Of a stretch of DNA of 64,000 nucleotides, positions 1 through 4,630 are shown in pieces (positions within the stretch are counted from its first letter, which is position 1; every line of letters starts with the position of its first letter). The notes beneath the pieces are model-generated. The model was not told where the DNA came from, did no database searches, and saw nothing but the letters and a program-made list of their open reading frames with translations. The DNA is from Candidatus Marinacidobacterales bacterium (GTDB taxonomy: Bacteria; Acidobacteriota; Vicinamibacteria; Marinacidobacterales; SMYC01), in the NCBI GenBank assembly GCA_965224085.1, contig CBDCYI010000004.1, positions 256,001 to 320,000 of the forward strand, read 5' to 3'. The position numbers and the translations under genes were made by a program.

Positions 1-37
1 ACTTCAACCTTCCTGATCTGGACGCTGCCCAGCACAC
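1..37 (-). mobile_element. 5' end of a second, nested group II intron inserted in the left intron copy; continues beyond the window start
   Basis: Identity to the right intron copy stops at ...GATTCATAGT (pos 38). The minus strand then reads GTGTGCTGGGCAGCGTCCAGATCAGGAAGGTTGAAGT, a GUGYG 5' splice-site consensus resembling but distinct from the host intron start GTGCGCTGGGC...GGTGGAAGT. Only 37 nt are visible. Confidence 0.7.
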
Positions 38-433
38 ACTATGAATCGGTCCGACTTCCGGCCTCAGCTCAGCACCGCGCTTCGGTTTTCCCTTGCGCGA
101 CGCCCCCATCGGTGACCATTCCGATGGACCCGGCCGGACCTCCTGGGTCCCGAAAGGAACTCTTCGTACGTGATGTGGTCCACGACCCCGGCGGAGCGTA
201 ACCATCTCGCGATAGCGATGGCCCACATGCTGCCTTCATTGACGGGAATCAACTCGGCCTTCCGCGATATTCAGCATTTCGAGGCTACATTCACACACCC
301 TGCACGACCCCTGTCTACGCTTCGGACCCCGCGTTGCCACGACGCCCGCAAGACTCGGTCCCGACCTGTCCGCTACGACTTTTGGTCGGATTGGACTTCC
401 ACCCATAGGCTCCTTTCAGTTAGCCCAGCGCAC
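38..433 (-). mobile_element. Group II intron copy (5' 396 nt, domain I to start of domain III) inserted in the IS256 TIR downstream of the transposase
   Basis: Reverse complement of 1880-2275. Starts GTGCG at 433. Mirror ORFs 64..252(-) and 2061..2249(+) are identical. Confidence 0.93.
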
Positions 434-470
434 TCCCGTCGGATGTTGAATTTGGTCGGGTAGCGGCGGC
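434..470. repeat. IS256 terminal inverted repeat downstream of the transposase, inner part
   Basis: Reverse complement GCCGCCGCTACCCGACCAAATTCAACATCCGACGGGA matches 1846-1879 except for a 3-nt indel and one substitution. Confidence 0.88.
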
Positions 471-1781: not shown

Positions 1782-1851
1782 GGTGGCTCCTTGTCCCCCT
1801 CTGGAGACGGTTGTTTGGCAGACCTATTTTTAGGCCGGCCAAGGAGCCGCC
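1782..1851 (-). promoter_or_regulatory. Hairpin that could sequester the IS256 transposase RBS in read-through transcripts
   Basis: GGTGGCTCCTTG (1782-1793) and CAAGGAGCCGCC (1840-1851) form an 11/12 inverted repeat that includes the RBS. Confidence 0.5.
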
Positions 1852-1879
1852 GCTACCCCAAATTCAACATCCGGCGGGA
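1846..1879. repeat. IS256 terminal inverted repeat upstream of the transposase, inner part; also the intron 5' exon (IBS)
   Basis: GCCGCCGCTACCCCAAATTCAACATCCGGCGGGA lies directly before the intron GTGCG. Confidence 0.88.
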
Positions 1880-3772
1880 GTGCGCTGGGCTAACTGAAAG
1901 GAGCCTATGGGTGGAAGTCCAATCCGACCAAAAGTCGTAGCGGACAGGTCGGGACCGAGTCTTGCGGGCGTCGTGGCAACGCGGGGTCCGAAGCGTAGAC
2001 AGGGGTCGTGCAGGGTGTGTGAATGTAGCCTCGAAATGCTGAATATCGCGGAAGGCCGAGTTGATTCCCGTCAATGAAGGCAGCATGTGGGCCATCGCTA
2101 TCGCGAGATGGTTACGCTCCGCCGGGGTCGTGGACCACATCACGTACGAAGAGTTCCTTTCGGGACCCAGGAGGTCCGGCCGGGTCCATCGGAATGGTCA
2201 CCGATGGGGGCGTCGCGCAAGGGAAAACCGAAGCGCGGTGCTGAGCTGAGGCCGGAAGTCGGACCGATTCATAGTACTGAGGAAGCTATCGAAGGCAACG
2301 AGATGGTGGAGGGAAGGGATCGGCCTGGAGGGAACCCACGGGAGAGGGCTAAGGTCCGGACACAGCGCCGGGTCGCCTTACCGCCAAATCTCACGCGGGT
2401 GAACGAAGCAGCGAAGCGAGATAGAAAGGCTCGGTTCACTGCGTTGCTGCATCACGTGGATCACGAAGCGCTCTATCGAGCGTTTCGTCGGTTGAAGCGC
2501 AGCGCAAGCGCTGGTGTCGACGGAGAGACTGTCGCCGATTACGAGAAGAACTTCGTGAGCAACATCAAGGATCTTTGCTCGCGGGTACACGCCGGTCGCT
2601 ACCGACCACTACCGGTGCGGCGCGTGTACATTCCTAAGTCGGATGGCGGAAAGCGCCCTCTTGGCATCCCCGCACTGGAAGACAAGATTGTCCAAGGAGC
2701 GGTAGCCGAGGTTTTGAGCGCCGTCTACGAAGTCGATTTCATCGGGTTCTCGTACGGGTTTCGGCCCGGACGGAGCCCGCACCAAGCGTTGCACGCGCTC
2801 CACACCGCGCTCATGACGCAACGCGTGAACTGGGTTCTCGACGCGGACATCCGCAAGTTCTTCGACTCGGTGGACCACGAGTGGTTGATGCGGATGCTTT
2901 CGCACCGGGTCGCCGACAAACGCATCCTTCGACTCATCCGTCAGTGGTTGCGAGCCGGCGTACTGGAGAAAGGAGAGTGGAGCGAGACAACTGAAGGGAC
3001 ACCGCAAGGGGCAGGTGTGAGCCCGCTCTTGGCTAACGTCTTTCTGCACTACGTTCTAGATCTGTGGGTTCATCGATGGCGCCGGCTCGAAGCACAAGGC
3101 CGTATTTCCATCGTGCGATACGCTGACGACTTCGTCATGGGCTTCCAGCATCGGACCGATGCCAGCAGGATGATGAGAGCGCTCAAGGAGCGACTAGCCC
3201 GATTCGGGCTTGCGCTCCACGAGAACAAGACCCGTTTGCTCGAGTTCGGGAGATTACCTTCCTTGTCACGCGAGCAACGGGGCCTTCGGCGGTGTGCGAC
3301 GTTCGCTTTCCTGGGTTTCACTCATTATTGTGGGAGAACCCGCGATGGCCGTTTCGTCGTGAAGCGCAAAACGCAGAGCCAGCGGCTACGAGCCAAACTC
3401 AAGTCGCTACGGCTTCGCGCGAAGCAACGTATGCATGCTCCAGTCGCCGTCCAGCATCGCTGGCTTTGCCAGGTGCTGCGCGGTCACTACGCGTACTACG
3501 GACTTCCCAGCAACATCCGCTCTCTCCAATCCTTTTCTGAGGAGGTGACACGGTTGTGGTTTCGAAGCCTTCGTCGGCGGAGTCAGCGCCGAATGACCTG
3601 GCCTCGTTTTCACTTGTTGTTGGAGCGCTTTCCCCTACCAGTCCCTCACCTCACTCCGTCCCGACTACCTTGCCTTGTCTGATTTCGGGTATACCTTCAG
3701 GAGGAGCCGAGTGCGGGAAAGCCGCACGCTCGGATCTGTGAGGGCGAAAGCCGAATGGCTGAGCTACTCGAC
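1880..3772 (+). mobile_element. Complete group II intron (endonuclease-less IEP, resembles bacterial class E)
   Basis: 5' GTGCG at 1880. Domain V GAGCCGAGTGCGGGAAAGCCGCACGCTCGGATC at about 3704-3736. Domain VI ends CTACTCGAC at 3772 (AY end). Internal RT ORF. Confidence 0.93.
2303..3682 (+). CDS. ltrA: Group II intron reverse transcriptase/maturase (start uncertain)
   Basis: ASAGVDG, YIPKSDGGKRPLGIP, SYGFRPGRS, GTPQG, RYADD, FLGF and a domain X (LRGHYAYY). No C-terminal HNH domain. Confidence 0.95.
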   Translation: MVEGRDRPGGNPRERAKVRTQRRVALPPNLTRVNEAAKRDRKARFTALLHHVDHEALYRAFRRLKRSASAGVDGETVADYEKNFVSNIKDLCSRVHAGRYRPLPVRRVYIPKSDGGKRPLGIPALEDKIVQGAVAEVLSAVYEVDFIGFSYGFRPGRSPHQALHALHTALMTQRVNWVLDADIRKFFDSVDHEWLMRMLSHRVADKRILRLIRQWLRAGVLEKGEWSETTEGTPQGAGVSPLLANVFLHYVLDLWVHRWRRLEAQGRISIVRYADDFVMGFQHRTDASRMMRALKERLARFGLALHENKTRLLEFGRLPSLSREQRGLRRCATFAFLGFTHYCGRTRDGRFVVKRKTQSQRLRAKLKSLRLRAKQRMHAPVAVQHRWLCQVLRGHYAYYGLPSNIRSLQSFSEEVTRLWFRSLRRRSQRRMTWPRFHLLLERFPLPVPHLTPSRLPCLV

Positions 3773-3778
3773 CATCCC

Positions 3779-3880
3779 CCCCGGCAGGGCTTCGCTTCTG
3801 TCACGACCCTCGAACACGACTTGGCCGTTCACGAGGACGAGCTCGACCCCGCGAGCATATTGATGAGGCTGGCGGAATGT
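3779..3880 (-). pseudogene. C-terminal remnant of a D-aminoacylase-like amidohydrolase abutting the IS256 end
   Basis: Minus frame reads TFRQPHQYARGVELVLVNGQVVFEGRDRSEALPG. No upstream gene body. Confidence 0.5.
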
Positions 3881-3944: not shown

Positions 3945-3963
3945 AAGAGCTATATTGGGCTCG

Positions 3964-4170
3964 ATGATCGTTTGTCTCTGTAAAGGCGTGACTGACCGCA
4001 CCATCCGTACGCTCGTGCGCGAGGGCGCGTGCTCCATCCGGGACGTCGGACGCGCGTGCGACGCGGGCCGTACCTGCGGCGGCTGCCGACCGACGATCGA
4101 CCGGCTCGTTGCGACAGAGACGAGGCAGCGCAAGTCGCCTCGCGGTATGATGAAGGGTCATGAAAGGTGA
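3964..4170 (+). CDS. bfd: Bacterioferritin-associated [2Fe-2S] ferredoxin
   Basis: MIVCLCKGVTD...CGGC motif, upstream of bfr. Confidence 0.88.
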   Translation: MIVCLCKGVTDRTIRTLVREGACSIRDVGRACDAGRTCGGCRPTIDRLVATETRQRKSPRGMMKGHER

Positions 4171-4630
4171 TGCAAAGATCATCGAAGCCCTCAACGACGT
4201 CCTGACCGCCGAGCTCACCGCCATCAACCAGTATTTCGTGCATGCCAAGATGTGCGAGAACTGGGGCTATAAACGCCTCGCCAATAAAAAGCGCGACGAG
4301 TCCATCGAGGAGATGAAACACGCCGATAGCGTGATTCTCCGGATTCTCTTTCTCGACGGCATCCCGAATATGCAGCGCCTCAGCCCGGTGCGCGTCGGCG
4401 AGGAAGCGGTCGAGCAGCACAAGCTCGATTTGGAGCTCGAGCTCGACGCCATAACAAGGCTGAACGACACGATCGCGCTTTGTCGCGAGAAGGGCGATAA
4501 CGGCACGCGCGAGCTACTCGACAGCATCTTGAAAGAAGAAGAGGACAGCGTCGATTGGCTCGAGGCACAGCTCCATCTCGCCGAAGAAGTGGGCCGCGAG
4601 CGCTACCTCGCCGAGCAGATCAATTCTTAG
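4160..4630 (+). CDS. bfr: Bacterioferritin
   Basis: MKGDAKIIEALN..ELTAINQYF.H..ESIEEMKHAD, 156 aa. Confidence 0.96.
   Translation: MKGDAKIIEALNDVLTAELTAINQYFVHAKMCENWGYKRLANKKRDESIEEMKHADSVILRILFLDGIPNMQRLSPVRVGEEAVEQHKLDLELELDAITRLNDTIALCREKGDNGTRELLDSILKEEEDSVDWLEAQLHLAEEVGRERYLAEQINS

Follow-up and report, generated by a model that had tools for sequence, protein, structure and literature searches.

A group II intron in both terminal inverted repeats of an IS256-family element, with a target choice probably encoded in part by its EBS1 and EBS2 sequences

The only report of a group II intron targeting terminal inverted repeats (TIRs) that was recovered from the literature, most subscription journals being outside the scope of the search, concerns RmInt2 from Sinorhizobium meliloti GR4. 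This intron belongs to the bacterial class D and to the structural class IIB, and it targets both inverted repeats of the insertion sequence (IS) ISRm17 (PMC4615759). In the available sections of PMC4615759 and PMC5894124, RmInt2 is described with a protein devoid of endonuclease domain, an exon-binding site 2 (EBS2) of 5 nt, a linker of 2 nt between the intron-binding sites 1 and 2 (IBS1 and IBS2) of the target, and natural targets where one IBS2 position is unpaired. The same sections indicate that RmInt1, whose natural homing site is found within ISRm2011-2, also encodes a protein without endonuclease domain, that its specificity depends on the EBS1, EBS2 and EBS3 pairings and on distal exon bases read by the protein, with a lagging-strand bias, and that both introns are primed by replication-fork DNA (PMC4615759, PMC5894124). 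The IIE/IIF introns are, in the available text of Nagy et al. 2013 (PMC3753933), compact, bacterial and IIB-like; domain Id contains their EBS1 and EBS2, and IBS1 and IBS2 immediately precede the splice site. The stretch analyzed here, referred to as the window, is the whole 64,000-nt segment of contig CBDCYI010000004.1 of a Candidatus Marinacidobacterales bacterium. It contains a group II intron similar to these systems, complete at positions 1880-3772 of the plus strand (copy B) and represented by its first 396 nt at positions 38-433 of the minus strand (copy A), the two copies being located in the two TIRs of one IS256-family element. From the comparison of sequences, we consider it probable that this intron has retrohomed into both TIRs, 7 bp from the tip, and that its target choice is partly encoded in the RNA by EBS1 (UCCCGU) and EBS2 (GCUG). 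The mechanism itself belongs to the textbooks and is unchanged by these results, and the targeting of both inverted repeats is already published for RmInt2 and ISRm17.

The reading of the elements was based on the Rfam, Pfam, TIGR04416 and NF033543 profiles and on blastn. Domain I of copy B (1914-2137, plus strand) matches the full model RF02005 (group-II-D1D4-6, model positions 1-225) with 140.9 bits for a gathering score of 49, and this match is mirrored on the minus strand at 399-176, likewise with 140.9 bits. Domains V and VI (3702-3772, plus strand) match RF00029 with 53.2 bits (gathering score 40) and reach the final base of the intron. Both models are matched in full length; RF02005 carries no intron class name or target information, and its variable hairpin loop and internal loop are the places of EBS1 and EBS2. 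The intron encodes in domain IV a reverse transcriptase/maturase of 459 aa (gene 2303-3682, ORF 2303-3679, plus strand) recognized by RVT_1 (E 4.2e-39) and by TIGR04416 (365.4 bits, cut-off 300), the latter match ending at residue 426. No endonuclease or HNH domain was detected in this protein with Pfam at E up to 0.001, since RVT_1 is the sole Pfam match. Bacterial introns of the classes C, D, E and F encode proteins without endonuclease domain. In the genome of the window, four full-length copies of the intron display 99.9-100% identity over 1,896 nt with blastn, and all the partial copies are 99.8-100% identical across the part retained. The near-identity of the full-length copies points to a recent spread, an indirect sign of splicing and retrohoming activity. 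Copy B is a complete group II intron that looks active and encodes a protein without endonuclease domain.

By this feature the intron of the window resembles RmInt2 and RmInt1, and it shares with RmInt1 a natural homing site within an IS (PMC4615759, PMC5894124). It differs from RmInt2, as described in the available text, by an IBS2 of 4 nt at -12..-9 instead of -14..-10 and by a protein of 459 aa instead of 419 aa. Among the matches listed, the intron protein of a S. meliloti plasmid, possibly that of RmInt1 or RmInt2, is 39% identical to that of the window over 66% of the length, and the identity is of 53% for introns of Klebsiella plasmids and of 69% for Bradyrhizobium. The intron probably belongs to a lineage other than that of RmInt2. 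In the literature searched, which lacked most subscription journals, no report was found on this lineage or on the IS256 TIRs as an intron target.

The 21 blastn matches to the intron in the genome of the window provide 11 intron 5' junctions and 12 intron 3' junctions. The boundaries 1880-3772 are directly observed and unambiguous, because two intron-less IS ends (C4:895330 and C7:309) display the joined exons, where ...CCGGGA is followed by CATCCCC and then by unrelated sequence (in longer readings, ...GCGGCCGGGA and ...AATTCAACAGCGGCCGGGA, each joined to CATCCCC). The intron starts with GUGCG (1880) and ends with CGAC (3772), which fits the conserved GUGYG start and AY end, and the RF02005 and RF00029 matches agree with these limits. 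CATCCCC is common to all 12 intron 3' junctions and the sequences diverge beyond it. The position in the TIRs is observed as well. The 5' exon of copy B is the inner part of the right TIR (1846-1879, plus strand, as compared with the other IS ends), and its 3' exon starts with the outermost 7 bp of this TIR (3773-3779, plus strand), severed from the remaining TIR by the intron. On the other side, copy A is inverted relative to copy B, as seen from the inverted repeat, RF02005 and blastn, and its 5' exon is the inner part of the left TIR (434-470, minus strand), read by comparison with the other IS ends. Together with 22 nt of flanking TIR, the two intron arms make up the inverted repeat 38-455/1858-2275 of 418 nt. 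Between them, the minus strand carries the gene of an IS256-family transposase of 431 aa (488-1780), which matches NF033543 (225.2 bits, cut-off 150) and PF00872 (E 1e-41, DDE of the Mutator/IS256 type). After rejoining of the 7-bp tips, the TIRs are about 41-44 bp long. Direct repeats of 8 bp are found beyond the IS tips at two loci, CCCGGCAG in the window (3780-3787, plus strand, with its partner copy past copy A, outside the window) and CTCACGGA on contig C11. In the IS256 family, the typical target-site duplication is 8-9 bp. The IS has made an ordinary 8-bp target duplication, and the introns sit 7 bp inside each tip, pointing outward. As the insertion separates the tip from the remaining TIR, the intron would probably disable that IS end.

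In both TIRs the insertion point is between A at -1 and C at +1. Thirteen IS ends were found in the genome: ten are occupied by the intron, one carries a 4-nt remnant of the intron and two are empty. One IS has the intron at one end only (C4:893894 occupied, C4:895330 empty). RmInt1 has a single site inside the transposase gene of an IS, whereas the intron of the window uses two TIRs. Since one TIR repeats the other in inverted orientation, one IS represents two target sites, one per strand.

At C4:1360216-1360377, all that remains of the intron at the IS end is its first 4 nt (GTGC), past which the sequence is unrelated; this is a deletion remnant of an occupied TIR. At C11:193426-195321 (locus L002), a full intron occupies a site that retains 17 nt of inner TIR, GTTCAACATCCGGCGGGA, before the intron and the 7-bp tip CATCCCC after it; the eleventh 5' junction (C11:195321) is this one, where only the positions -17..+7 of the TIR are kept. 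The flanks contain the similar short repeats TATAATTCCCGG and TATATTCCCGG, and the locus could represent either what is left of an IS or an ectopic site. The smallest target retained here thus spans about -17..+7.

Concerning EBS1, the original prediction had read a hairpin made of TTGA (2061-2064), TTCCCG (2065-2070) and TCAA (2071-2074), where UCCCGU (2066-2071) would pair with the exon ends GCGGGA on the right (1874-1879) and ACGGGA on the left (reverse complement of 434-439). All these motifs are present at these positions. In the RF02005 structure, 2060-2063 pairs with 2072-2075 and the terminal loop of this hairpin of domain Id is 2064-2071 (AUUCCCGU), so that UCCCGU (plus strand) is found in the loop expected for EBS1, while the segment proposed for EBS2 (2036-2044) is within an unpaired internal loop. 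The covariation with the exons was analyzed in relatives of the intron, namely the loci of homologues of the intron protein (79 loci with 53-77% identity, taken from a single genome for each species). The intron 5' ends were found by nhmmer and the closest 25 were aligned (alignment A2, 24 distinct sequences). In this alignment, 78.5% of the cells are paired between 2066-2071 and the exon positions -1 to -6, against 63.4% after shuffling, and each of the six pairs is changed on both sides somewhere. The covariation of EBS1 with IBS1 is 0.364 against 0.127 for the shuffled data, a value reached by none of the 500 shuffles, and the slid registers do not exceed 0.114. Helices anchored at -1 have a mean length of 5.36 bp with the cognate exon and of 2.49 bp across exon classes. 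The EBS1/IBS1 pairs of relatives include UCCCAU/AUGGGA, UCGCGA/UCGCGA, GCCAAA/UUUGGC, CAUAUG/CAUAUG, CUCGCAU/AUGCGGG, GCUGGU/ACCGGC and CCCGCA/UGCGGG, for UCCCGU/GCGGGA in the window. The two outer EBS1 pairs are unpaired in about half of the rows of A2, which is partly an alignment effect of differences in loop length. UCCCGU is thus EBS1, and its partners are GCGGGA at 1874-1879 (exon -6..-1, plus strand, defined by the junctions and the covariation) for copy B and ACGGGA at 434-439 (minus strand) for copy A, whose own EBS1 is at 242-247 (minus strand).

The wobble pair between U2071 and the base at -6, which had been invoked to accommodate the difference between the two TIRs, does exist but is not required. 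In the 11 intron 5' junctions of the genome, the base at -6 is G in six, A in one and C in four, the latter giving a U.C mismatch with U2071. Since -6 varies, including C at 4 of 11 sites, the U2071 pair is unnecessary. The positions -1..-5 (CGGGA) are invariant in this genome.

For EBS2, the segment ATGCTGAAT at 2036-2044 had been paired with ATTCAACAT at 1862-1870 (exon -18..-10). Both are present, and the complementarity at 8 of 9 positions is real, with a single C.A mismatch between C2039 and the exon position -13. The region is the right one: in the Rfam consensus structure, the stem of the EBS1 hairpin in domain Id has an internal loop whose 5' strand, 2034-2047 (AAAUGCUGAAUAUC, 14 nt, plus strand), is unpaired. 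The minimum free energy fold of the intron nt 1-423 likewise leaves 2034-2047 unpaired; with z = -0.71 this fold is uninformative alone, and the Rfam structure was used for this reason. The register itself is unsupported, since no covariation accompanies it in relatives. In A2, 49.8% of the cells are paired in this register against 48.5% after shuffling, a value reached by 141 of 500 shuffles. The flexible permutation test gives 530/5000 on 29 sites and 958/5000 on 20 distinct loops, and the diagonal excess of pairing is 3.4 points, against 23.3 for the register at -9.

Metagenome loci were then added to the relatives (80 loci, of which 36 have usable junctions), all the registers combining a loop position with an exon position were computed, and the sites were collapsed to 35 with distinct loops and distinct exons. 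From this set, the loop positions 1-4, GCUG at 2038-2041 (plus strand) in the window, display 72.9% of pairing with the exon positions -9..-12 against 37.4% for the cross combinations, which none of 2000 permutations reached. All other registers from -6 to -16 are at background, including that of the original prediction (35.0% paired against 34.3%, 928/2000 permutations). The pairs are present in 28, 23, 24 and 27 of 35 sites at -9, -10, -11 and -12, respectively, where the non-cognate values are 35-42%, and the neighboring positions are at background (21/35 at -8 for 54% in cross combinations, 9/35 at -13 for 24%). Compensatory changes are observed at -10, with G in the loop and C in the exon for the loci L058 and L185, and C in the loop and G in the exon for L060. 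From this single standout register, EBS2 is therefore GCUG (2038-2041) and IBS2 is the tetranucleotide at -12..-9. The pairing of EBS2 with IBS2 is present in this register as in the IIA/IIB-type introns and absent from the one first proposed. A longest-helix test between loop and exon (4.10 against 3.18) is too noisy, because 4-bp helices are common when G-U pairs are allowed. In the window, IBS2 is CAUC, at 1868-1871 for copy B (exon -12..-9, plus strand, from the covariation register) and at 442-445 for copy A (minus strand), the EBS2 core of the latter being at 272-275 (minus strand). The tetranucleotide is CAGC in five occupied and two empty TIRs of this genome, where the four positions pair with GCUG, and CAUC in six occupied sites including both copies of the window, where three of four positions are paired and -10 forms a C.U mismatch. 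EBS1 is thus confirmed by covariation and the target choice is, at least in part, encoded in the RNA; the EBS2 duplex as first written is replaced by another register.

The alternative that survives best is nevertheless this first duplex. It supposes that, in the intron of the window itself, AUGCUGAAU (2036-2044) pairs with AUUCAACAU at -18..-10 as a long EBS2 with an internal C.A mismatch and a linker of 3 nt to IBS1. The match of 8 of 9 positions is found on both TIRs of the window, the TIR variants with G at -10 still give 7 of 9, and a match of 8 is unusual, being reached by only 11 of 752 non-cognate combinations of loop and exon. Furthermore, the relatives L038 and L043, in TTTCCAC-type TIRs, could form seven contiguous pairs at -12..-18, and the window and L038 differ on both sides at -14 (exon A/C, loop U/G) and at -18. 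These points are opposed by the absence of any family-level signal in the four tests mentioned above (A2, flexible, diagonal excess and 35 sites). Part of the apparent match is explained by GAA, which supplies three of the pairs and is found again at this place of the loop in most of the aligned relatives whatever the exon, including exons without UUC (judged by eye, no count). GUUG, the perfect complement of CAAC, is absent from all three lineages in TTCAAC-type TIRs, each having one mismatch there, whereas each has a tetranucleotide that perfectly fits a known TIR variant at -12..-9. We regard this long duplex as unlikely.

Several observations weigh against the reading with EBS1 and the GCUG core. 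For EBS1, the relative L043 displays a poor pairing (2 bp anchored), and in one of the copies of L111 the 5' exon and the EBS1 do not correspond. For the EBS3-IBS3 (or delta-delta') pairing with the base at +1, which is C in 17 and A in 4 among the 21 relatives whose 3' end was located, five alignment columns are tied at 18/21 and no unique site emerges. For EBS2, both copies of the window have a mismatch within a helix of 4 bp, to be compared with 8 of 9 positions for the long duplex. The register -9..-12 is not significant on the fixed columns of A2 (53.3% against 49.9%, 80/500), a block of near-identical introns from Bradyrhizobium and Mesorhizobium fits one base further out (65.9% for the -1 slide), and the signal is clear only after the addition of the metagenome relatives and the collapse of the redundant sites. 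As A2 alone is not significant, the conclusion on EBS2 is drawn from the larger, collapsed set. The mismatch of IBS2 in the window has a direct precedent, since RmInt2 tolerates a single IBS2 mismatch in the targets described in the available text of PMC4615759.

A second alternative is that the RNA reads only IBS1, through EBS1, and the base at +1, the rest of the TIR being recognized by the protein or conserved by homology, without homing role for EBS2. The available text of PMC3753933 reports that the EBS2-IBS2 pairing is dispensable for the self-splicing of IIE/IIF introns in vitro, a further point against a role of EBS2; in addition, the copies of the window are established despite the IBS2 mismatch, the core has just 4 bp, and the TIR bases -13..-18, which have no RNA partner, are conserved in the clade. 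On the other hand, unless the pairing is under selection, it is difficult to account for a covariation seen in 35 independent sites, of which many do not belong to IS elements. The same authors themselves propose a retrohoming role for EBS2-IBS2 (PMC3753933), and the selection experiments on RmInt2, in the sections of PMC4615759 available, indicate that this pairing matters for homing. An intron guided by EBS1 without EBS2 is thus very unlikely. The last alternative, in which the complementarity would be incidental and the locus made by DNA rearrangement (IS jump between intron copies, or palindromic duplication), can be dismissed: the near-perfect inverted repeat of 418 nt is of a type that rearrangement can produce and the genome holds several truncated and rearranged fragments of intron and IS, but it is contradicted by the intron-less TIRs with exactly joined exons, unless they are assembly artefacts, by the 7-bp tips and 8-bp duplications outside the introns at two loci, by the IS occupied at a single end, and by the relatives of other phyla found at the same TIR position beside IS256-family transposase genes on either strand.

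In the preferred reading, where both EBS1 and EBS2 guide retrohoming, the excised intron RNA and its protein would recognize the TIR by the pairings EBS1-IBS1 (5-6 bp) and EBS2-IBS2 (4 bp). EBS1 would pair with the final 5-6 bases of the inner TIR, (A/G/C)CGGGA, and EBS2 with CA(G/U)C at -12..-9, so that a short linker between them, at -8..-6/-7, would stay unpaired. The intron would then be inserted by reverse splicing into the DNA between -1 and +1, a step where the EBS pairings are presumably used. By analogy with RmInt1, RmInt2 and other introns without endonuclease domain, priming would probably be ensured by replication-fork DNA. The conserved TIR bases -13..-18 could be recognized by the protein, or they could just be inherited with the TIR. 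According to the argument of the authors of RmInt2, the favored strand always offers one copy of the target when both TIRs contain it, and this may also apply to the intron of the window.

The bases of the TIR from -6 to -10 (1870-1874 and 439-443 in the window) represent the main differences among IS copies that are otherwise 99% identical, including those of contigs C5, C9 and C11. Depending on the IS copy, the stretch -10..-1 is TCCGGCGGGA, GCCGGCGGGA, GCCGCCGGGA, TCCGACGGGA or GCGGCCGGGA. The variable bases are those of the IBS1-IBS2 linker and of the -10 pair, and for these bases the two ends of one IS copy are more alike than the same end in other copies. Gene conversion between the long inverted intron arms is a possible cause.

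The 5' exons of the close relatives resemble homologous TIRs, where TTCAACAGC, TTCCACAGC or CTACACCAC precedes a short variable segment that leads to GGGA or GCGA. At ten loci (L038, L039, L042, L043, L045, L046, L048, L049, L051 and L053), an open reading frame (ORF) of the IS256 type (Transposase_mut) is found immediately 5' of the intron, on either strand. The search by tblastn with the transposase of the window agrees for nine of these ten loci, adds L055 and misses L053. At L048, from Mesorhizobium, the IS is flanked by the 8-bp duplication CTTAGCCC, the intron is located 7 bp from one tip and the opposite TIR is empty. Four loci with a TIR-like exon (L040, L047, L056 and L067) have no transposase among their two longest upstream ORFs, and at four others the upstream sequence available is too short. 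The more distant relatives (53-64% protein identity) are found in ordinary genes or in other elements. Judging by their titles, the loci are distributed over Binatia, Armatimonadetes, Gemmatimonadota and Alphaproteobacteria. From these data we tentatively propose, as a possibility somewhat short of probable, a cross-phylum clade (about 65% or more of protein identity with the window, without endonuclease domain) that would be specialized on one position of IS256-family TIRs, 7 bp from the tip, and whose EBS1 and EBS2 would track the TIR variants (GGGA/GCGA at -1..-4; CAGC, CUAC and CCAC at about -12..-9). If this is true, the clade represents a hyperparasite lineage co-diversifying with one IS family. 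A large subgroup from Bradyrhizobium and Mesorhizobium (among L038-L056 and L118-L144) displays the intron start GUACG instead of the usual GUGYG.

The genome of the window offers a clean natural example of a homing site defined by two short guide sequences, with empty, occupied and variant targets present together. The covariation in relatives is sufficient to place EBS1 and EBS2 in this lineage, which is the information needed for retargeting. The apparent use of the same IS256-type TIR position by the clade extends the single published case of RmInt2 and ISRm17, and it suggests that introns may routinely parasitize, and perhaps disable, a major IS family.

The outer intron is itself the host of a second group II intron. 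This nested intron of 2,033 nt (C4:254005-256037, locus L195) interrupts the outer intron between its nt 396 and 397, a short distance upstream of the outer ORF, and forms a twintron; only its first 37 nt are in the window (1-37, minus strand), inside copy A. It starts with GUGUG, its 3' end matches RF00029 (domains V and VI), and it encodes a reverse transcriptase/maturase of 458 aa (TIGR04416, 393 bits) that is 34% identical to the outer protein. The split at nt 396/397 is found in six copies of the outer intron, and four copies are uninterrupted. Among the distant relatives, L111 (two intron copies), L080 and L110 have an additional reverse transcriptase ORF directly upstream of the intron, and these arrangements may be nested or tandem introns.

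Copies of the intron truncated at the 5' side, starting at nt 649, 780 or 826, were detected at C11:484180-487614, C5:1938339-1939455, C5:2297164-2298280 and C4:1823514-1824760. One truncated copy is joined head-on to a truncated IS, and two of them are part of a larger duplication, since their downstream flanks are identical. These truncated and joined copies appear as signs of recombination among the repeated elements. Finally, directly past the IS of the window, the region 3960-4630 contains a small ORF with a CxxC-rich motif and an ORF of 156 aa, which resemble a bacterioferritin-associated ferredoxin and a bacterioferritin.

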